DNA from: Candidatus Xenobia bacterium
Lineage (GTDB): Bacteria > Vulcanimicrobiota > Xenobia > Xenobiales > QWHO01
DNA length: 64,000 nt
NCBI GenBank assembly: GCA_045863235.1
Contig: BTUM01000023.1
Location: 26,428-90,427, forward strand
Direction: 5' to 3'
Shown: positions 26,596 through 60,948 of the stretch, piece after piece
Layout of the letters: every line of letters starts with the position of its first letter
How positions within the stretch are numbered: the stretch's first letter is position 1
Program-made: the position numbers and the translations under genes
Notes under the pieces: model-generated
Seen by the model: the letters and a program-made list of their open reading frames with translations, nothing else
Database searches by the model: none
Told to the model about the DNA's origin: nothing

Positions 26596-26670
26596 GGCGG
26601 GGTAGCTCAGTGGCAGAGCAGGGGACTCATAAGCCCTTGGTCGGCAGTTCAAATCTGCCTCCCGCCACCA
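26596..26670 (+). tRNA. tRNA-Met (CAT), elongator type
   Basis: Full cloverleaf GGCGGGG...TCCCGCC-ACCA; anticodon loop CTCATAA; paired G1-C72 argues against initiator. Confidence 0.93.
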
Positions 26671-50830: not shown

Positions 50831-50983
50831 CTCGACCTCCCGAGCGTTCTTTCACCCTCAGGATAGACCCTCGAGGTTCAAACTTTTTTGGGAAAGGCCC
50901 CCTGGAAGATTGCCATCTCGTTAACACTGTGTGAACGACTTGAGCGTCCCAGGAGTTCCCTCTCGCTCTGCGAACCCACGCCC

Positions 50984-52486
50984 ATGCGACGAACCCTCGT
51001 TCTCTGGCTCTTGCTGGCCCTCTGCTCGGCCGCTCAAGAGCGCCCCGTCAAGATCACCTTGTTGCAGCTCAACGACGTCTACACCATCGCTCCCGTCGAC
51101 AAGGGCGGGGTGAACGGCGGCTTTGACAGGGTCGAAACGCTGCGCCAGCGGGCCTTCAAGGAGAACCCCAACAGCATCTTCGTGATGGGAGGCGACACGC
51201 TCTCCCCTTCGGTGGCCTCCAACCTGTTCAAGGGCGCTCAGATGATCGAGGGCTGGAACGCCGTCCATCTGGACGTGGCCGTGCTCGGCAATCACGAGTT
51301 CGACTTCGGAGACGAGGTCTTGCTCGAGCGCATGAAGGAATCCCGCTTCGTCTGGCTCGCTTCCAATGTGCGCAACCGAAAGACCGGTCAGATTTTCGGC
51401 GGCATGCCGGCCACCCTGGTCCGCGAGCTCGGGGGAGTCAAGGTCGGCTTCTTCGGACTTCTGACGCCGGAGACCATACAGACCTCCCGGGCCGGACCGG
51501 ACGTGGAGATCACCGACCCGGTGGCCTGTGCCCGGGCCATGGTGGCCGAATTGCGCGGTCAGGGCTGCCAGGTGGTGGTGGCCATGACCCATCTCAACCT
51601 GGCCGAGGACCTGGAGGTGGCTGCGAAGGTCGAGGGGATCGACGTGATCTGCGGCGGCCACGAGCACACCCTGCTCGGCGGCATGGTGGGGCGCACCCCC
51701 ATCTTCAAGTGGGGCTCGGACGCCCGCATGCTCGGCAAGATCGACCTCACCGTGCAGGGGGGCGGGGTCAAGCACATCGACTGGATCGGCCTGCCGGTCA
51801 ACAAGGACGTTCCCGGCGACCCGGTCGTGTCGGCCATGATCAAGCGCTATGAGGATAAGCTCAACCAGGCCCTGGGTCAGCCCATCGGCACCACCGAGCT
51901 CGAGCTCAACGCCCTGCAGATCGACAACCGCAACATGGAGACCAACCTGGGCGACTTCATCGCCGACTCTTATCGTCGCGCGCTCAACGCCGATGTGGCC
52001 TTCCTCAACGGCGGCTCGATTCGCTCCAACCAGATGCTGCCGGCTGGGACCTTGACCCGGCGCGACATCATGACCGTCCTTCCTTTCGAGAATCCGGTCG
52101 TCAAGGTCGAAATCCCCGGACGCGTGCTACGCCAGGCCATGGAGCACGGTCTCTCGTTGGTGGGATCGGTGCCCGAGGCTGGTCAGTTTCCCCAGGTCTC
52201 GGGCATGGTGATCAAGTATGACGCCCGCAAGCCGCCGGGCTCGCGCATCGTGGAATTCCTGGTGGGGGGCGAGCCACTGCGCGACGATATGCCCTACACG
52301 ATGGCCTCCAACACCTTCGTGCTGGCCGGCGGAGACGGCTACACCATGCTCGAGGGCCTGAAGTTCCTGGTCACCGCCGAGGCGGGTCCGGTCGAGCCGG
52401 CCACCGTCATTCGGGCCATCGAGGCGGCCAAGACCATCGCGCCCCGGGTGGAAGGCCGCATCCTTCGGCTGGATGGAGGGAGGTGA
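50984..52486 (+). CDS. Secreted 5'-nucleotidase / UDP-sugar hydrolase family protein
   Basis: Signal peptide; NDVY, GGD, GNHEFD, GGHEH; 5'-nucleotidase C-domain (NGGSIR, FPQVSG). Confidence 0.92.
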   Translation: MRRTLVLWLLLALCSAAQERPVKITLLQLNDVYTIAPVDKGGVNGGFDRVETLRQRAFKENPNSIFVMGGDTLSPSVASNLFKGAQMIEGWNAVHLDVAVLGNHEFDFGDEVLLERMKESRFVWLASNVRNRKTGQIFGGMPATLVRELGGVKVGFFGLLTPETIQTSRAGPDVEITDPVACARAMVAELRGQGCQVVVAMTHLNLAEDLEVAAKVEGIDVICGGHEHTLLGGMVGRTPIFKWGSDARMLGKIDLTVQGGGVKHIDWIGLPVNKDVPGDPVVSAMIKRYEDKLNQALGQPIGTTELELNALQIDNRNMETNLGDFIADSYRRALNADVAFLNGGSIRSNQMLPAGTLTRRDIMTVLPFENPVVKVEIPGRVLRQAMEHGLSLVGSVPEAGQFPQVSGMVIKYDARKPPGSRIVEFLVGGEPLRDDMPYTMASNTFVLAGGDGYTMLEGLKFLVTAEAGPVEPATVIRAIEAAKTIAPRVEGRILRLDGGR

Positions 52487-52492
52487 CAGGCC

Positions 52493-53518
52493 ATGACGAT
52501 CCGATTGACCTCGCTGAGCTCCTGCGCGGGTTGAGCCTCCAAGATCCGGCCTGAGGATCTGGAGCAGGTTCTGCCCCATCTGGACTTGAGACCCGACCCT
52601 CGCATTCTGGTCGGGAGAGATTTCGCCGACGACGCCGTGGTGGTCCGGGCCGGCAGCGACACGCTGTTGGTGCAGACGCTCGACTTCTTCACGCCCGTCG
52701 TGGACGACCCTTACCACTATGGCAAGATCGCGGCCGCCAACTCGCTGTCGGACGTCTACGCCATGGGGGGGCGACCGCTCACGGCCATGAACATCGTCTG
52801 CTTTCCCACCCGCAAGCTGGGCACCGAGGTGCTCAACGACATCCTGCGCGGGGGGCTGGAGAAGGTGCAGGAAGCCGGTGCGATGCTGGCAGGCGGCCAT
52901 ACGGTGGAGGATGCCGAGCCCAAGTTCGGCCTTTCGGTCACCGGCCTGGTGCAAGAGGACGAGCTGGTGACCAAGGGAGGACTGACTCCGGGGCAGGTGC
53001 TGATCCTGACCAAACCGGTCGGAGTGGGCGTCTTGACCACCGCCCTCAAGCGGGGCGAGCTGAGCGACGAGCTGCTGGAGATCGCCGTGGCCAGCATGGA
53101 GCTTCTGAACGCAGCGGCCCGAGACGTCATGGTGCGGGCCGGAGCCCAGGGTGGCACCGACATCACCGGCTACGGCCTGCTCGGCCATGCCATGGAGATG
53201 GCTCGCGCCTCTCGGGTGGCTCTGACCTTCGAGTCGGCTCGAGTACCCCTGCTGCCGGGAGCCGTCGACCTGCGACGGGCAGGGTGCTTTCCCGGCGGCT
53301 CGGCCGCCAACCGCGTCTGGCTCGAGAGCTCGGGCCGCCTGCACTGGGAAGATTCGGCCCCCGACGTGCTGCGCGACCTGTTGTGCGATGCTCAGACCTC
53401 GGGCGGGCTCTTGTTCGGGGTGAGCCCGGAGCGAGTGAGCGAGGTGCTCGCCGAGCTGCCCGGGGCGGCCGTGGTGGGCCACACCGAAGCAGGTGAGCCA
53501 GCCATCCGAGTCGTTTGA
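52493..53518 (+). CDS. selD: Selenide, water dikinase; selenoprotein (Sec at codon 14)
   Basis: MTIRLTSLSSCAG-TGA-ASK continues in frame into DDAVV, DFFTPVVDDP, ANSLSDVYAMGG, DAQTSGGLL; GGAGG RBS; the ORF track misses the N-terminus. Confidence 0.95.
52536..52565 (+). promoter_or_regulatory. Putative bacterial SECIS hairpin
   Basis: CTCC-A-AGATCC-GGCCTGA-GGATCT-GGAG directly 3' of the TGA at 52532-52534. Confidence 0.7.
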
Positions 53519-53540
53519 GCATCACTCTGCCAGAAACACG

Positions 53541-53566
53541 AAAGCCACCCGGTGAGGGGTGGCTTT
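53541..53566. terminator. Hairpin terminator, possibly bidirectional
   Basis: AAAGCCACCC-N6-GGGTGGCTTT between the selD end and the putative ncRNA end. Confidence 0.7.
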
Positions 53567-54238
53567 GCGACCCGGCTCCATCCTCACCGGGCACTCCTGG
53601 TGCAACCTGCAGTCGGTGGTCGGCTTGCGCCGAACGCTTCTCCTCACGGTCCCGACCCGGTTCCAGGCCCGCCTCGCTTTGACCACGCAGTCGAGGCCCT
53701 GCTCCGTGCTCAGGTCTGCACGTTACCCCTGCCAGGTCTCGGTCTCTGGCAGCCCGCCGGCTCTCTCGCTCGCCGGGGCGGCCGACTCTACGTTCTGTGT
53801 CGGCATCTTGCTCGGCTCGATGGTTAGTCGAGCCGGGCGTCTCAGCTCTTCTCCGCAGCTAAGACCCTGCGGCGTAACTCTGGTATGCACGCTACCCCTG
53901 CCGACTTTCGAGCGGCAGACCGTCCGGTTCTCTCGCTTCCCGGGGCGCCGACGAGCACGACTCGTCGGTGTATACCAGCCAAGGCTGGAAGCCGGCCCCA
54001 TTCCTCACCGGCACTTCCTGGTCCAACTTGCTCGGGGACACCTTGCGGTGTGCTGAACCTCGCGGTCCCGAACTCGTCCCAGGCCTGCCTCGATCCGTAA
54101 CGCGGTCGAGACACCGCGGCGTGCTCGGTCTGCACGCTACCCCTGCCAGGTTCGGTCTCTGGCAGCCCGCCGGTTTCTTTCGCTCACCGGTGCGTCGGCT
54201 TGTCGTTTCGCCGATTCGGTCAACGTCGCCGTCGACAA
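53567..54238 (-). ncRNA. Putative large structured ncRNA with three related domains
   Basis: Three copies of GGCAGGGGTARCGTGCA and of the CCGG-NRAGCGARAGAR-CCGG hairpin; stems kept while loops vary; flanked by promoter and terminator; no credible ORF. Confidence 0.65.
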
Positions 54239-54242
54239 CCGG

Positions 54243-54272
54243 ACTATAACCGCAGGTCGGTCAGGGTGTCAA
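54243..54272 (-). promoter_or_regulatory. Sigma70-type promoter
   Basis: TTGACA (54272-54267), 18-bp spacer, TATAGT (54248-54243) on the minus strand. Confidence 0.7.
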
Positions 54273-54494
54273 TCCCGAACAAACTGTTCGCTCCCCCGCA
54301 TGAAGCCTTCGATCCAGGCGTGGTGGGGAGAAGAATCTTCTTCACCGGGGCTTGAATCGAAATCTTGTTCTAACGGTTCTGATCTCCTGAAGCGCGCAAC
54401 TGTGAAATCCGCTTGAACGGAAAGCGCACGGTTCCTGATCGGAACCGCGCGCTCTTCGGGTCAGCGATCGGTTGGCCCGAAACCCCGGTTGAGC

Positions 54495-55259
54495 TCAGGG
54501 GGCAAGCCGGGTCTTCAGCTCGAGCACGGTGTCGCTGCGGCTCGGAATGATGATCGAGCCCCCCAGCGTGACGGTTTGCTCGGTGCTGCTCACGGTCTTC
54601 TGCCAGATCGGCACCCCCGTGGCGCGGTCGACGTGCATCGTCCACTCCACCTTGCTCTGCGATGAGGTCGCGGCGCCCGGACCCTGGCCCTGGGAGGTGA
54701 GCTGGAGCGAAAACTCCAGCACAGCCAGTTTCTCGTCCAGGCTCACCAGTTTGCCGGTGCCCAGAAGTCGGGTCTGGATGGGTAGCTTCTTCGAGTCGAT
54801 GGCCACCGTGCCCGTGGTCGTCTGCTCCACCGGCCAGCTTTCGCCCACAGCTACGTTCCGTAGCGGAAAGAGTGCAGGCTGGTCGACCATTCCAGGCGGA
54901 CCCCCTTCGGCCACCATTTTCTGCTCGTAGAGCTTGGAGATGGTCAGATGCCAGTGTCCCGGTGGAGCGAGATTCACCGGATCTCCGGTGCGATTCCACT
55001 TGCGAACCTGGCGCACCAGGGCCAGGGTTCCGGCCAGATCGCGCTCGTCGACCAGGTCTTCCCAGAGCAGATCCTGCTCTTCGGCCGAGTTGACCTCGCC
55101 GGTGGGCAGCTTTAGCCAGCTCTTCACGCTCAGGTGGCCTTCGGTCAGCCAGGTCGTCTTTGGCTCGGGGTGATAGCGGATCTGGACCCTGGCAGCTTCC
55201 GTCGCGGCCAGCAGAGGCAAGGCCAGAATGGCCAGGAATAACAACATGCTCTTTCTCAT
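54495..55259 (-). CDS. Secreted beta-rich hypothetical protein
   Basis: Signal peptide; ATGA overlap with the upstream gene. Confidence 0.7.
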   Translation of the reverse strand: MRKSMLLFLAILALPLLAATEAARVQIRYHPEPKTTWLTEGHLSVKSWLKLPTGEVNSAEEQDLLWEDLVDERDLAGTLALVRQVRKWNRTGDPVNLAPPGHWHLTISKLYEQKMVAEGGPPGMVDQPALFPLRNVAVGESWPVEQTTTGTVAIDSKKLPIQTRLLGTGKLVSLDEKLAVLEFSLQLTSQGQGPGAATSSQSKVEWTMHVDRATGVPIWQKTVSSTEQTVTLGGSIIIPSRSDTVLELKTRLAP

Positions 55260-56215
55260 CGGACCGTCCCCCTGTCCACAGGTTTGGGCCCCGTCTTGGG
55301 CGTTGCTGGCACCTTGGGCGGACCGAGCGCGGGGCTTCCGGTCGGACCGCTGTAGTAGCCCGGGCCATGCACCGACTCAGGGTTGCCGTTCTGGGTCTGA
55401 TGCGGGTCGAGCACGATGATCAGGTTCGGGTTCCGGGTCGACTGAATGGCGGCCATGTTGTGCTCGCTGTTTCCGGTGCCCACCGCGATCACGAGGCCGG
55501 TCGTACCGCCCACCAGGGTGCCCAGAGGGCCGGCCATGGCAGTGCCGGCGCCCGCCCCTTTGACAACCAGGATCATTGCGATGGGGGCGCCGCCGTAAGC
55601 CCCGTACTGCCGAATCGCACCCGGCACCCAGTTATAGGTATGGACCGTGAAGGGACGATTGCCGCCGGTGTGAGGCCCGAGCGCATTGACGGCCTGCTCG
55701 GACATGTCGGCGCAACCACGCTTGTAAGGATCGCCGCCGCCGATGGCGCTCAGAGAGTTGAGGAAGTTGCGCATGTCACCGCCAGCCGAGTCCCATGTGC
55801 GGGGATTGTCCTTGACATAGTTGTTGATGGCGGTCTGGTAGGTCGTCAGCAGGTTGCCCAGGTTGGTCAGCTCCGATCCGGTGAGCCCGTTCAGAACCTG
55901 CTGCAAAGCCGGGTCGTTGGCTGCCTGGTTGGCCAGGTTGCCCAGCGGCGAGTCAGGATTGTTCTGAAGCCAGTCGCTGAAGTTGCCAACCGGCTCCTCG
56001 GTTTCCCCTTCCTCTCCCTCGGTCTGGCCGGCACCCTCCCCGTCCCCGTTCTCCATACCCGGGCCCAGGATGGGGGGAGGGCCGCCCGGGCCGGACGGAG
56101 GCCCTGATGGGCCGGGATTGCACGGCCCCGAGCCGGGAGGGCAATTCTGCCCGCTGACCGGGGCCAGCAGGGCCAGGGCCAGCACCACGGTTCCCAGAAT
56201 TGTGCGAAGTTGCAT
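55256..56215 (-). CDS. Secreted Gly/Pro-rich protein with possible Cys-His-Asp triad
   Basis: GGAGG RBS; signal peptide; GCADMS, EHNMAAI and IVLDPH motifs. Confidence 0.7.
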   Translation of the reverse strand: MQLRTILGTVVLALALLAPVSGQNCPPGSGPCNPGPSGPPSGPGGPPPILGPGMENGDGEGAGQTEGEEGETEEPVGNFSDWLQNNPDSPLGNLANQAANDPALQQVLNGLTGSELTNLGNLLTTYQTAINNYVKDNPRTWDSAGGDMRNFLNSLSAIGGGDPYKRGCADMSEQAVNALGPHTGGNRPFTVHTYNWVPGAIRQYGAYGGAPIAMILVVKGAGAGTAMAGPLGTLVGGTTGLVIAVGTGNSEHNMAAIQSTRNPNLIIVLDPHQTQNGNPESVHGPGYYSGPTGSPALGPPKVPATPKTGPKPVDRGTVR

Positions 56216-56322: not shown

Positions 56323-57645
56323 ATGAAGAGCAACCTGCGGGCTATCCCCAGCATCGACAGCCTGCTCCAGGCCGCCGCGGCAAGACCCGAGCTGGCCGCC
56401 CGGCCACGGACCCTGGTGACCGACGCCCTGCGCCTGGCGGCGGCGGAGCTGCGAGCCCGGGGCGGAGCCTCGGATCCGGCCGAGGTCATCTTGCGACAGG
56501 CCGAGGCCCTGCTGCACGACTGGCTGGGCAAGACCCTGCAGCGCGTCATCAACGCCACCGGCGTGGTGCTCCATACCAATCTGGGCCGCGCTCCGCTGGC
56601 CGCTCGGGCGCTGGAAGCGGTAACGCGGGTGGCGCAAGGCTACTCCAACCTCGAGCTCGATCTGGAAACCGGCCAGCGAGGCAGCCGCTACAGCCACCTG
56701 GTGGGCCTGCTCGCTCGCCTGACCGGCGCCGAGTCGGCCCTGGTGGTGAACAACAACGCCGCCGCCATGCTGCTGCTGGTGGACGAGCTGGCCCGCGGCC
56801 GCGAGGTCGTTTGCTCGCGGGGCGAGCTGGTCGAGATCGGCGGCGCCTTCCGCGTGCCCGACGTGCTGGCCCGGGGAGGGGCTCGCCTGATCGAGGTGGG
56901 CACCACCAACAAGACCTATCTGCGCGACTTCGAGAACGCCATCACGGCCGACACCGGGATGCTCTTGTCCACCCACATGTCCAACTTCGTCATGCTGGGC
57001 TTCACCCACGCCCCCGACCCGGCCGAGCTGGCCGCCCTGGCTCGCGCACGGGGGGTGCCCGGCGTGCTCGATCTGGGCTCAGGGCTGCTCGACGAAGAGC
57101 TTTCTGTCGTGCTGGGCGAGCCCTCGGTAGGCTCGATGGTGCGGGCCGGCTTCGACCTGGTCGCCTTCTCGGGCGACAAGCTGCTGGGAGGCCCGCAGTG
57201 CGGCGTCATCGTCGGCGCGCGCGAGCTGGTCGCCCGCCTGGCCAGGAATCCCCTGACCCGCGCCCTGCGGGTCGACAAGCTCACGGTGGCCGCCCTGGAG
57301 GCTACGCTGCGCCTGTACCTGGAGGCTCCCGAGGAGATCCCCGTGCTGCGCATGCTGCGGGCCACCGACCTCGAGGAGCGAGCCCGCCGCCTGGCTGCCC
57401 GGCTCGAGCAGGCGACCGTGGATTCGGGCTCCTCGATGGTGGGCGGAGGCAGCCTGCCCGGCAAGGACCTGCCCACGCACCTGGTGCGCCTGCGGGGGGA
57501 CGAAGAGGCCTGGGCGGCCCGTCTGCGCCGTCATGATCGGCCTGTCATGGTGCGCCGGGCGGAGGATTCTCTCTGGGTGGATCCCCGCACGGTCTTCGCC
57601 GAGGAAGAGGACGAGCTGGTGGAGGCCTTGCAGGCAACCCGTTGA
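56323..57645 (+). CDS. selA: L-seryl-tRNA(Sec) selenium transferase
   Basis: VINATGVVLHTNLGRAPL, VNNNAAA, SRGELVEIGG, PLP site FSGDKLLGGPQ. Confidence 0.97.
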   Translation: MKSNLRAIPSIDSLLQAAAARPELAARPRTLVTDALRLAAAELRARGGASDPAEVILRQAEALLHDWLGKTLQRVINATGVVLHTNLGRAPLAARALEAVTRVAQGYSNLELDLETGQRGSRYSHLVGLLARLTGAESALVVNNNAAAMLLLVDELARGREVVCSRGELVEIGGAFRVPDVLARGGARLIEVGTTNKTYLRDFENAITADTGMLLSTHMSNFVMLGFTHAPDPAELAALARARGVPGVLDLGSGLLDEELSVVLGEPSVGSMVRAGFDLVAFSGDKLLGGPQCGVIVGARELVARLARNPLTRALRVDKLTVAALEATLRLYLEAPEEIPVLRMLRATDLEERARRLAARLEQATVDSGSSMVGGGSLPGKDLPTHLVRLRGDEEAWAARLRRHDRPVMVRRAEDSLWVDPRTVFAEEEDELVEALQATR

Positions 57646-57665: not shown

Positions 57666-58964
57666 TCAGTGCTCAACGGGTGGCAAAGGCAGCTCGGGGA
57701 ACGACACGGGGTTGATCCTCAGGGCTTCCTGGCGGCACCGGGCGACCTCCTCGGCCCGTTTCAGCGCTTCGGCCAGGGCGGCCCGCTCGCGCCAGGCAGG
57801 GGCGTCCCGATAGCCCTGGGCAAAGGCCTCCTCCATCAGAGCCCATCCGTCCTCTGGCCGGCCTGCCAGGCGCAGAGCCCGGGCAGCCGTCATCAAGGTC
57901 TCGAAGTCGCGCCGCAAGGCTAGCTCTGCCTGCATCAGCTCCACCGCCTCCCTGGCTTCCCCTCGATCGAGCAGCAACCCGGCCAGGGCCCGCCGGTGGC
58001 CCATCGTCTGCTGGCCCTCCAACTCGCGCCGGTAGGCGTCCTCTACCCTCTGGCGGGCTTCGGCTGCCTCCCGCTCGAGCTTGAGGCCCTCGAGGGCCAT
58101 GGCCACCCCCTGCAGCGCGCCGGGATCGCGCCCTAACGCGTAGCTCTCGGTGAAGTGCTCGTGGGCGGCCGTCAATCGGCCCCGAGCCAGGTCCACCCGT
58201 CCCAGCTCGGCCAGCGCCGCCGGGTCGCGCCCGATGGTGAGGGCTGACCCGAGCACCACCTCGGCCAGCCGCAGCTTGCCGTGGCGCGCGTACAGACGAG
58301 CCAGCAGCACCCGGGCCTGCAGCGAGGAGGCCACCTCGCCTGCCTGCTCGCGGTCGATCCCTTTCCACAGCTCGCGAGCAGCCTCCTCATCCAGGCCCCG
58401 GGCAACCAGGGTCTGAGCCCGCAGCACCGAGCTGGTCAGGCCCGGCTGCTGGAGGGCCAGCTGGTCGGCCAGCTCGGAGGCCGGTTTCACCTGCCCCAGG
58501 GCCAGCAGGGCCGTCACCTTGAGCGCTCGCGCCGCGTGCTGGGTGGGATCCTCCTGGAGGATGCGCGAGATTCTCTCCAGAGCGCCCCTGAAATCGTGCC
58601 GGGCCACCTCCAGGTGAGCCAGCACCAGCTCGGCGCCGGGGTTGAAGTGGGCCATGCTCTTGAGCGACAGGCGGGCGCTCTCCTCGGCCAGGAGAACCAT
58701 CGCCGGATCGCGCGTCTCGCGCGCCCGGGCAAGGTAGGCCTGGGCCAGCGCGGCCCGGTCGAGGAAGCCTTCCGGGTTCTGCTCCACCCGGGCCTTGAGC
58801 TGCTCGATCTCATGGCGTGTGCCGGGAGAGAGCAGGGGCAGCCGGTAGGGGGCGACCTTGATTTCGCGCGGGGAGGCCTGCTCGAGCCGTCGGCCCAGGC
58901 TCAGGCCGCCCGCCAGAACCAGGGCGGCCAGGAGCAGCACGGCCATCCACCGGCGAGGGCTCAT
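57666..58964 (-). CDS. Membrane-anchored tetratricopeptide repeat protein
   Basis: N-terminal hydrophobic helix followed by TPR units (LAQAYLARARETRD...AEESARLSL). Confidence 0.82.
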   Translation of the reverse strand: MSPRRWMAVLLLAALVLAGGLSLGRRLEQASPREIKVAPYRLPLLSPGTRHEIEQLKARVEQNPEGFLDRAALAQAYLARARETRDPAMVLLAEESARLSLKSMAHFNPGAELVLAHLEVARHDFRGALERISRILQEDPTQHAARALKVTALLALGQVKPASELADQLALQQPGLTSSVLRAQTLVARGLDEEAARELWKGIDREQAGEVASSLQARVLLARLYARHGKLRLAEVVLGSALTIGRDPAALAELGRVDLARGRLTAAHEHFTESYALGRDPGALQGVAMALEGLKLEREAAEARQRVEDAYRRELEGQQTMGHRRALAGLLLDRGEAREAVELMQAELALRRDFETLMTAARALRLAGRPEDGWALMEEAFAQGYRDAPAWRERAALAEALKRAEEVARCRQEALRINPVSFPELPLPPVEH

Positions 58965-59034
58965 GGGCGGGGCGGTTCTCGTCGCCAGGCTGCATTCCTG
59001 GAGGAAGGCCGGAGAGGGGGATGAACTGGCGCCT

Positions 59035-60948
59035 GTGAAGCATTTCATCGTCGGGACTGCCGGCCACGTCGATCACGGCAAGAGCACGCTGATCCGTGCC
59101 CTCACCGGCATCGAGACCGACCGGCTGCCCGAGGAGCAGGCCCGCGGGCTCTCCATCGACCTGGGTTTTGCTCACCTCGAGCTGCCCGGCGAGATCGTGG
59201 CCGGCATCGTGGACGTGCCCGGTCACGAGCGCTTCCTCAAGAACATGCTGGCCGGCGTGGGCGGCTACGACCTGGGGATGCTGGTGGTGGACGCCCAGGA
59301 GGGAGTGATGCCCCAGACGCGCGAGCACCTGGAGATCCTCGAGTTGCTCAAGACCCGGGCCGGGCTGGTGGTGCTCACCAAGATCGACGCCGTGGACGCC
59401 GATTTCGCCGAGCTGGTGGAGGACGACCTGCGCGCTTACCTGGCCGGCACCTTTCTCAAAGAGGCCCCCCTGGTGCGGGTCTCGGCCCGCAGCGGAGAGG
59501 GTCTGGACGAGCTCAAGCGAGTGCTGGCCGAGCTTCTGGGCCAGCTGACTCCCCGCAACCGCAAGGCGCCTTTTCGGCTGCCCATCGACCGGGTCTTCGT
59601 AAAGTCAGGCTTTGGCTCGGTGGTGACCGGCTCGCTCTGGAGCGGCACCCTGCGCAAGGGCGACCCGGTGGTGGTCTTGCCAGCCGGCATCGAGACGAAG
59701 GTGCGCGGCCTGCAGGTGCACTCGCACCAGGTGGAGGAAGCCCAGGCCGGCCAGCGGGTGGCCGTCAACCTGACCGGGGTCGAGGCGGCCTCGCTCGAGC
59801 GCGGCCAGTGGCTCGCTCCCCCCGGCTTGCTCACACCCACGCAAAGACTGGACGCTCGCCTGGAGCTGCTCGAGCGCCTGCCCCGTCCGGTCAAGCATCG
59901 CAGCCGCATCCGGTTTTACGCGGGCACCCTGGAGACCCTGGGCACGCTGCTTGTGCTGGAGGGCGAGGCCCTCAAGCCCGGTCAGCAGACCCTGGTGCAG
60001 CTTCTGCTGGACGATCCGGTGGTTTTGCAGCAGGGGGATCGTTTCGTGCTGCGCGATCACACGGCCCAGCTCACCCTGGGTGGTGGCGAGGTGCTTGATA
60101 CGGCCCCCGCGCGCCATAAGCGGGGCGACACCGAGGCCCTCGAGTCGTTGCGCCGCCGCGAGCAGGGCGGCCCCGAGGAAGCGTTGCTGGAGGTGCTGCG
60201 CAAGGCCAGCGGAGGCACCCGCACGGTGGGAGCCCTGGCCCAGGAGATGCAGACCCCCGCCGCCCAGGTGGAGAGCTGGGTAGGCCAGCTGGCCGCTGCG
60301 GGCGAGGTGGTGGTGCTGGGCAAGAGCGTGGCCCTGGCCAGCCTGGCCTCGGCCCTGGAGGACCGGCTGCTGGGCGTGCTGGCGAAGCTGGAGCAGGGGG
60401 CTCCCTGGAAGGTCGGTTGGCGCAAGGAGGAGATCCTGCGCCTGCTGGCCTCGGACACTCCCAAACTGGCCGAGGAAGTCCTGGCCGAGTTGGGGCGTAC
60501 GGGTCAGATTCAAGACAAGAACGGCCTGCTCTCGAGCCTGAGCCATCAGCCCACCCTGGCTCCCTCGCAGCAAAAGGCCCTGGACCGCCTGGAGGCAGCC
60601 CTGCGGGCGGGGGGGTTCTCGCCCCCCGACTTCGATGCCGCCCTGGCTCAGGCCGAGATCGACGCCCGCTCGGCCCCCGTCGTGGAGGGCTACCTGCTCG
60701 AGAGCGGGCGGGGCGTGAAGGTGGCTCCCAACCTGGTGTTCCTGGAGGAGACTCTGACCAGGGCCCGGGACCTTCTGGCTGCGGCTATCCGCGAGAGCGG
60801 GCCGCTAGGAGCCTCCGAGGCGCGCGAGTTGCTCGGCACGACGCGCAAATTCCTGATCCCCATGTTGGAGCACTTCGACCGCATCCACTTCACCCAGCGC
60901 GACGGGGACAAGCGCATTCTCTACGGGCAGAAGGTGAAGATCTCCTGA
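59035..60948 (+). CDS. selB: Selenocysteine-specific elongation factor
   Basis: [24 protein letters not shown]-terminal winged helix ([13 protein letters not shown]); GTG start. Confidence 0.97.

Follow-up and report, generated by a model that had tools for sequence, protein, structure and literature searches.

An expressed, apparently undescribed family of large modular noncoding RNAs in Candidatus Xenobia

The window analyzed here is a stretch of 64,000 nucleotides from a Candidatus Xenobia bacterium (assembly GCA_045863235.1, contig BTUM01000023.1; G000:C23:26428-90427 in our genome set), and all positions given without a contig refer to it. On its minus strand, at 54239-53535, lies a noncoding gene of about 705 nt with its own sigma-70-type promoter and its own terminator. 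Downstream, it is convergent with selD (52586-53518, plus strand; TIGR00476, 332 bits), whose open reading frame as listed starts at TTG. Upstream of it stands a gene for a protein of 254 amino acids that belongs to no Pfam family (54495-55259, minus strand). The window also harbors a selenium gene cluster in which selD is accompanied by genes that we take to be selA-like (56323-57645) and selB-like (58858-60948), and a tRNA-Sec gene of this contig (C23:26260-26351) lies a little beyond the edge of the window. A selenium link of the RNA family was considered and rejected, because selD, selA and selB are near the window locus only. A further tRNA gene with its own consensus promoter is located at 26596-26667 (plus strand).

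The promoter, TTGACA-18-TATAGT at 54272-54243 (minus strand), had been proposed in a first-pass annotation of the sequence and was confirmed by our scan. It matches the consensus at 11 of 12 positions, predicts a transcription start near 54237 and is the sole promoter-like site in 52800-55000 (shuffle mean, 0.0). The proposed intrinsic terminator was likewise recovered, as a hairpin at 53566-53541 followed by a U-rich tail (53535-53566 in total, minus strand). Folding of the RNA strand gave a z-score of -3.55, better than all 20 shuffles. In agreement with the earlier reading, we found no credible open reading frame within the gene. Indeed, the six internal frames that we checked had GC contents of 0.58-0.69 and 0.61-0.75 at codon positions 2 and 3, compared to 0.47 and 0.85 in selD and 0.46 and 0.81 in the upstream gene.

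Ahead of the -35 hexamer, at a fixed spacing, we observed a CGAAC box (54286-54290, minus strand). It occupies the identical position in five of the seven TTGACA-type paralogue promoters of genome G000 and may, judging from the sequence, be a regulator site. Reading it as a LexA box was rejected, since recA and three lexA-like genes had no matching conserved box when inspected by eye. An 11-bp direct repeat ahead of some of the promoters was also discarded as not specific, with 58 sites in the genome. This repeat (GTNAAC-N5-GTNAAC type) is often intergenic, for example before rpsO and near position 50920 of the window, also stands upstream of many RNA promoters in genus g4, and could be the site of a global regulator. 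Two further kinds of repeated sequence were seen in the genome. Dispersed and tandem GC-rich palindromic repeats of about 57 to 64 nt, REP-like and often at contig ends, occur on G000:C40, C41, C58, C90, C82, C31, C5 and C88. At the ends of G000:C16, C37, C139 and C7, four near-identical TTGACA promoters are followed by the same short sequence, which probably marks the edge of a multicopy element.

The RNA consists of three modules, each with a core of about 50 nt that is built as a small pseudoknot stacked on a hairpin, and two three-copy repeats (D1 and D2) were detected directly in it. The three units that had been described from the sequence, together with their variable, CCGG and CTGCC/GGCAG hairpins, were all found again, with the cores starting at 54143, 53898 and 53729 (all positions in this paragraph are on the minus strand). 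The RNA begins with a 5' hairpin common to five paralogues of the genome (54239-54219). Unit 1 comprises a variable hairpin (54214-54195), a CCGG hairpin (54190-54170) with a purine-rich loop that we infer to be T-loop-like, and helix H3 (54165-54143), whose CUG/CAG base is invariant in the alignment A1 described below. These are followed by the core, made of GGGUA and helix H4 (54143-54119), in which CC of the H4 loop pairs back to the upstream GG (pseudoknot 1), and by helix H5 (54119-54101), the loop of which pairs with 54093-54087 (pseudoknot 2). A 3' domain, formed by a CCUGG/CCAGG stem around a GNRA hairpin and a variable hairpin (54083-54017), and a closing hairpin with a G-rich loop (54012-53991) complete the unit. 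Unit 2 (53968-53814) is of the short type, with a variable hairpin (53968-53948), a CCGG hairpin (53943-53924), H3 (53918-53898), the core (53898-53872), H5 (53872-53854), the pseudoknot-2 strand (53845-53839) and a hairpin (53834-53814). Unit 3 (53804-53571) is of the long type, with a variable hairpin (53804-53781), a CCGG hairpin (53776-53757), H3 (53752-53729), the core (53729-53704), H5 (53705-53686), a 3' domain (53667-53596) and a closing hairpin (53591-53571). Units 1 and 3 have the extra 3' domain of about 100 nt and the closing hairpin, both of which are absent from unit 2. This 3' domain, the two pseudoknots per core and seven further loci in the genome had not been part of the first-pass annotation.

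That the stems vary in sequence with pairing kept, as had been claimed from the three units, was borne out by covariation. In alignment A1, 27 of 34 proposed pairs showed two-sided changes; slid controls reached 4 to 13 and none of 500 shuffles reached 27, a count that is not a probability because the 33 rows, one of them incomplete, are related. The minimal core, defined as GGGUA, the 6-bp helix H4 with its 8-nt loop and the 5-bp helix H5, was aligned over 84 cores retained from 114 descriptor hits after likely false hits and near-duplicates had been left out, and two-sided changes were found in 12 of its 13 pairs. In these cores G6, G7, A18 and C19 were invariant and U8, C11 and C15 nearly so, in a set picked by a descriptor that itself fixes most of these seven bases. 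With a short stem, a loop of 1-2 nt, a stem of 6 bp and a loop of 3 nt, the core has the geometry of a classic H-type pseudoknot.

When both positions of pseudoknot 1 were left free in the scan, 107 of 140 matches had G-C, 17 A-U, 1 G-U and 15 another combination, compared to no G-C/A-U bias among 649 genome-wide matches of the same descriptor. Metagenome loci outside the models gave 284 G-C of 290, with 5 A-U and 1 U-U, a G-C count inflated by the pattern used for fetching, and the A-U count in the 84-core alignment was forced by selection and is not independent. In an alternative 3-bp register, GGU is matched to ACC; its three pairs can form in 84, 84 and 83 of the 84 rows and show no two-sided change. 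By sequence, pseudoknot 1 may form in this shifted register rather than as the 2-bp GG/CC pairing. For pseudoknot 2, all seven pairs showed two-sided changes in A1 and 76% of cells were paired; it is present in many modules. In the 3' domain and closing hairpin, 10 of 16 pairs covaried. A helix closing the whole module (P1) was largely rejected, being weak (74% paired) and in competition with the better supported CCUGG/CCAGG stem, and is weakly retained for the short units only.

The first-pass annotation had made its case depend on transcription, and RNA was indeed found. Twenty-four runs with the sequence were listed, of which 19 are on record as RNA and are labeled as soil, water, sediment, sludge or wastewater. 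These 19 hold 36-52% of the words sampled from a 1201-nt stretch, 59% of which is made up by the RNA. Four RNA runs from four studies were mapped to 52400-55400, and in each the contigs confined to the unit covered 53570-54229, at depths of 530.8, 24.8, 414.7 and 64.7, in runs that were chosen for holding the sequence and with contigs that give no strand, ends or true level. They differ from the window by 1 to 3 letters, stop at 54217-54229 on the promoter side and extend to 53570-53572 on the terminator side. Same-strain pieces of the flanks had a depth of 3.1-3.6 in run X1, and the flanks were not covered in X2 and X5; taken alone, the lack of RNA cover over the flanking genes in three of the four runs says nothing about these genes. 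The window RNA is apparently abundant. A 659-nt contig (X2) spans all three units and a 571-nt contig (X5) also runs through cores, which favors one transcript rather than three separate RNAs, with partial processing still compatible. Furthermore, a paralogue of about 1.0-1.2 kb was present in all four runs, and several paralogues were expressed in one sample.

A scan of metagenomes returned at least 137 stretches with the pattern. Among the matches listed, 51 are whole contigs of 1029-1929 nt (median, 1266) with several cores each. The promoter pattern was found in none of these 51, compared to 44 of 51 genomic loci, and the closing hairpin stands at the contig end in 27 of the 51, compared to 172 of 1131 internal windows. 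These contigs thus resemble assembled transcripts. The match L183 carries 8 cores in 1929 nt. Two others, L189 and L190, are parts of contigs of 3.5 kb, and the 1.44 kb fetched of each show 5 cores. They and L195 (contigs of 2.9-3.5 kb) consist of modules only over the 1.4-1.5 kb fetched and are possibly much longer family members. One module-bearing contig ends in a fragment of large-subunit rRNA (L255:1558-1660) and is probably a chimeric assembly. For another match, L227, blast returned none of the genomic loci, and only one weak core match was seen.

These contigs bear on the possibility that the core blocks nucleases as a knot or is a site of processing or self-cleavage, with the array serving as a precursor of unit-size RNAs or just as a highly stable store of RNA. 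The combination of a 2-bp pseudoknot toward the 5' side with a second one between a loop and a downstream strand resembles viral exoribonuclease-resistant RNAs, and the RNA contigs do break at several places in the element. However, the breaks fall in repeats common to the paralogues, the two contigs of 659 and 571 nt run through cores (partial cleavage is still compatible with this), the 51 whole metagenome contigs among the matches listed each retain several of them, and Rfam gave no match to a ribozyme family. We therefore consider this explanation improbable.

A covariance model of the kind suggested from the three units was built from 33 modules (R1) and identified 27 modules on nine contigs of genome G000. 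They correspond to eight loci, counting two contig ends with near-identical tandem repeats of about 106 nt (G000:C111:1-780 and G000:C13:123385-123816, both minus strand) as probably one array broken by these repeats. The seven complete loci are 271 to 1255 nt long, and each is closed by a similar terminator. Seven loci have a TTGACA-type promoter and the copy on C12 has a weaker one. The modules are 63-88% identical to one another. On G000:C35, a gene of 284 nt carries a single module with its own promoter and terminator, and such members indicate that one module is a complete unit. At the other extreme, the G004 orthologue of the C111/C13 array (L071, on G004:C84) is assembled without a break over about 1607 nt and gives 15 core matches, most of them spaced by 59-69 nt with neither H3 nor 3' domain. 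Since this longest genomic array repeats the bare core alone, the core is the unit that is multiplied.

Scattered copies with target-site duplications had been named beforehand as the mark of a MITE. The dispersal is real, with eight loci in G000, but the other features of a MITE or selfish repeat were not found. Indeed, over seven loci the longest flanking direct repeat was 5-9 nt and the longest inverted match between the ends 5-7 nt, with about 6 expected by chance. The modules are as diverged as stated above, orthologues keep their neighbors within the genus, and no significant match was found in phage or plasmid collections (blastn gave 23-37-nt chance matches only) or in viral contigs. 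The lack of terminal inverted repeats and target-site duplications, together with the conserved neighbors, argues for a gene family and leaves the mobile-element reading largely refuted.

One paralogue raised the question of whether the module is a riboswitch aptamer, perhaps for riboflavin or FMN, from which arrays were derived as metabolite sponges. At G000:C12:51062-51332 (plus strand; L027), a single module with an extra conserved 5' part and a terminator precedes ribU (PF12822; best solved relatives, RibU) by about 60 nt. No obvious promoter lies between the two, and outside G000 the arrangement is shared by G001 and G004 alone. A search of G000 for an FMN riboswitch gave no match, which would fit such a role. 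However, the module was present at only 3 of 28 scanned ribU loci of the class, all in this genus (28 of the 30 fetched were scanned, two having begun inside the gene). Genus g4 has many of the RNAs but none at ribU, g2 and g5 have the RNA but 0 of 10 ribU matches, and no antiterminator was seen by eye. Additionally, the next gene after the window RNA, selD, is convergent. Where the same proteins flank more than one locus, the loci are nearly always orthologues within a genus, and no neighbors are shared across genera. A cis riboswitch had been judged unlikely from the window, and the restriction of the ribU link to one genus now makes a riboswitch origin very unlikely.

We then considered the distribution of the family. 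Model R1 matched 20 of the 44 genomes of the class (Candidatus Xenobia, Vulcanimicrobiota), with 4 of 4 in family f1, 14 of 16 in f2, 1 of 1 in f5, 0 of 19 in f3 and 0 of 3 in f4. A core model (R2) matched 15 of 16 in f2 and gave one borderline match in f3. Outside the class, 1 of 107 genomes of a phylum sample matched, weakly (E 0.004). A pattern scan over one genome per species gave 51 loci, of which 27 are titled Vulcanimicrobiota, Eremiobacteraeota or Candidatus Xenobia, 6 "bacterium" and 11 other taxa, and 7 are chance matches. Both tested loci titled as other taxa (L148 and L153) hold real modules. The seven matches titled as unrelated taxa, and matches in viruses, were rejected as chance, as they lack the H4 stem and have R1 E values above 0.2; their weak R2 scores reflect that the search pattern is part of R2, and three such genomes and one virus record had no R2 match at E of 0.05 or below. 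Within the reach of a narrow scan pattern and of model searches inside the phylum, the family looks lineage restricted. Genomes hold from a few to 27 cores and single RNAs 1 to 15; the shortest members measure about 0.3 kb and the longest at least 1.9 kb. A TTGAC hexamer stands upstream in 55 of 57 genomic loci examined (the three ribU-linked loci are outside this set, and the promoter of L028 was mispicked). In genera g2 and g5 the RNAs are ornate, about 1.2-1.6 kb long with 2 to 4 diverged cores; L009, L010, L011, L013, L015 and L047 form a conserved subfamily there, with many extra domains.

The absence of a match to RNase P, SRP, tmRNA, 6S, raiA and common riboswitches, first noted from the sequence alone, held in searches of Rfam 15 (which also includes ROOL, GOLLD, OLE and ribozymes), both at the gathering score and by E value. 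In the window, only tRNA was found, with three chance matches on the element (E 2.8-7.1). None of 18 long loci matched at E of 0.5 or below, 10 loci gave two weak unrelated matches, and 20 metagenome loci gave one rRNA piece at a contig end and one weak match. Identity with RNase P, SRP or tmRNA was rejected because normal copies of each are found elsewhere in G000, and identity with 6S because a 6S-like match, below the cut-off, is on another contig. We found no description of the family in the literature, including searches with the core motifs as text and the accessible part of one preprint (bioRxiv 10.64898/2026.09.15.751765); large catalogues of candidate RNAs lay outside this search, and the motif could stand there unnamed. 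Taken with the covariation and the RNA contigs confined to the unit, the lack of an Rfam match supports the original suggestion of a new large multidomain noncoding RNA, and we conclude that the family is real and expressed and, as a group of large modular RNAs, apparently undescribed.

A resemblance to translation components was also weighed. The H3 loop often reads CC(U/C)GA in 7-10 nt and is T-loop-like, and it stands beside a short pseudoknot, an arrangement also seen in tRNA-like structures of viruses. The RNA might accordingly mimic tRNA or rRNA and bind translation factors or the ribosome, perhaps during dormancy. The longest array does without H3, and no tRNA or tRNA-like family matched in Rfam; we hold this mimicry to be quite improbable.

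We tentatively hypothesize, with somewhat less than even confidence, that the RNA acts in trans as a multivalent binder, in which the repeated core binds a partner and capacity is set by the number of modules. The core (about 50 nt: GGGUA, pseudoknotted H4 and H5) would form a rigid pseudoknot stack that offers a single site for binding, while the hairpins and 3' domains around the cores would space, stabilize or orient them. The cell could then tune the amount of partner held through transcription and copy number. The partner would most likely be a protein or complex particular to the lineage, or possibly a small ligand. Multivalency is favored by the core being the unit multiplied, 15 times in L071 and in near-identical tandem copies in G000:C13, and trans action by the lack of a downstream gene class shared across genera. 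Eight loci per genome, several of them expressed in one sample, fit a role of dosage. All members share the structure of the core and a few of its unpaired bases, and stems free to change with pairing kept and few bases invariant are what would be expected of a binding surface; the conserved unpaired bases could equally serve RNA-RNA contacts. Against this hypothesis, no partner emerged among the candidates tried, CsrA and TROVE/Ro60 both being not found in G000, and the fixed order of different domains in many members, for example the RNAs of g2 and g5, fits a folded particle better than a row of equivalent sites.

The latter point leads to the main alternative, in which modules stack or dock within or between chains to build a rod, ring or cage of RNA alone, in the manner of ROOL, GOLLD and OLE. 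The RNA is large, apparently abundant and standalone, with numerous pseudoknots as well as GNRA and purine-rich loops, and the 2-bp GG/CC pairing could be formed between chains, which covariation cannot distinguish. For kissing of the G-rich loop with the H3 loop that follows, the score was 9.70, compared to 9.25 ± 0.27 in shuffles (P = 0.055; 37 pairs). According to PMC12286853, ROOL, GOLLD and OLE form 8-, 14- and 2-mers without protein. A module number that ranges from 1 to 15 is, however, hard to accommodate in a closed symmetric cage, and we regard an RNA-only architecture as a serious but rather unlikely reading.

Returning to the multivalent binder, we see in the family, just as tentatively, a possible new class of giant modular bacterial RNA, a counterpart of repeat proteins. 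A pseudoknot domain of 50 nt would be repeated and shuffled with accessory domains, in arrays of 2 kb or more, to give a multivalent scaffold or an RNA-only body, which might rank among the most abundant nonribosomal transcripts of its host and have a function novel for a bacterial RNA. Bacteria have few large structured RNAs, and many of these have been found to carry out unusual chemistry or to build particles. The modular build makes the proposal easily testable, since the 50-nt core, the 284-nt single-module gene and the long arrays all occur naturally. Since the family is easily encountered in environmental RNA data, it may also explain some of the unassigned reads in metatranscriptomes.

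Among known systems, CsrB, RsmY and RsmZ are decoy RNAs with repeated GGA hairpins, whose number sets their capacity. The family resembles them in being standalone and multicopy, with its own promoters and terminators and a capacity given by the number of repeated sites, and the proposed logic would be the same with a folded domain in place of the GGA loop. The repeat differs in that it is a tertiary domain of 50-250 nt and not a GGA hairpin. A CsrB-type sponge was ruled out, since GGA motifs are not enriched (16 seen, 20.7 expected) and CsrA (PF02599) was not found in G000; it was found in 7 of the 44 class genomes. A bacterial Y RNA was ruled out because TROVE/Ro60 (PF05731), found in 3 of the 44, was not found in G000. 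Tandem pseudoknots and xrRNAs of viral 3' untranslated regions are serial, stackable pseudoknots that form parts of viral genomes. The present RNA shares the serial, stackable pseudoknots, but it is a chromosomal bacterial gene and has H4 and H5 in series with no three-way junction. The raiA motif is likewise a standalone-like pseudoknotted noncoding RNA, of Gram-positive-related bacteria (PMC5737381), but it is a single monomeric domain of 205 nt (PMC12286853), and the present RNA has no Rfam match. Like the present RNA, ROOL, GOLLD and OLE are large, highly structured and pseudoknotted. ROOL has a mean length of 581 nt (PMC5737381) and can reach the abundance of 16S rRNA, and many of the GOLLDs are longer than 800 nt (PMC12286853). 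Prophages and the vicinity of tRNAs are frequent locations of ROOL and GOLLD, whereas neither pattern was seen among the loci examined here, one of which (G000:C13) ends about 1.8 kb from a phage-type integrase gene. Unlike these RNAs, the present family, with no Rfam match, has up to eight loci per genome and, by repetition of its module, spans lengths of about 0.3 kb to 1.9 kb or more.
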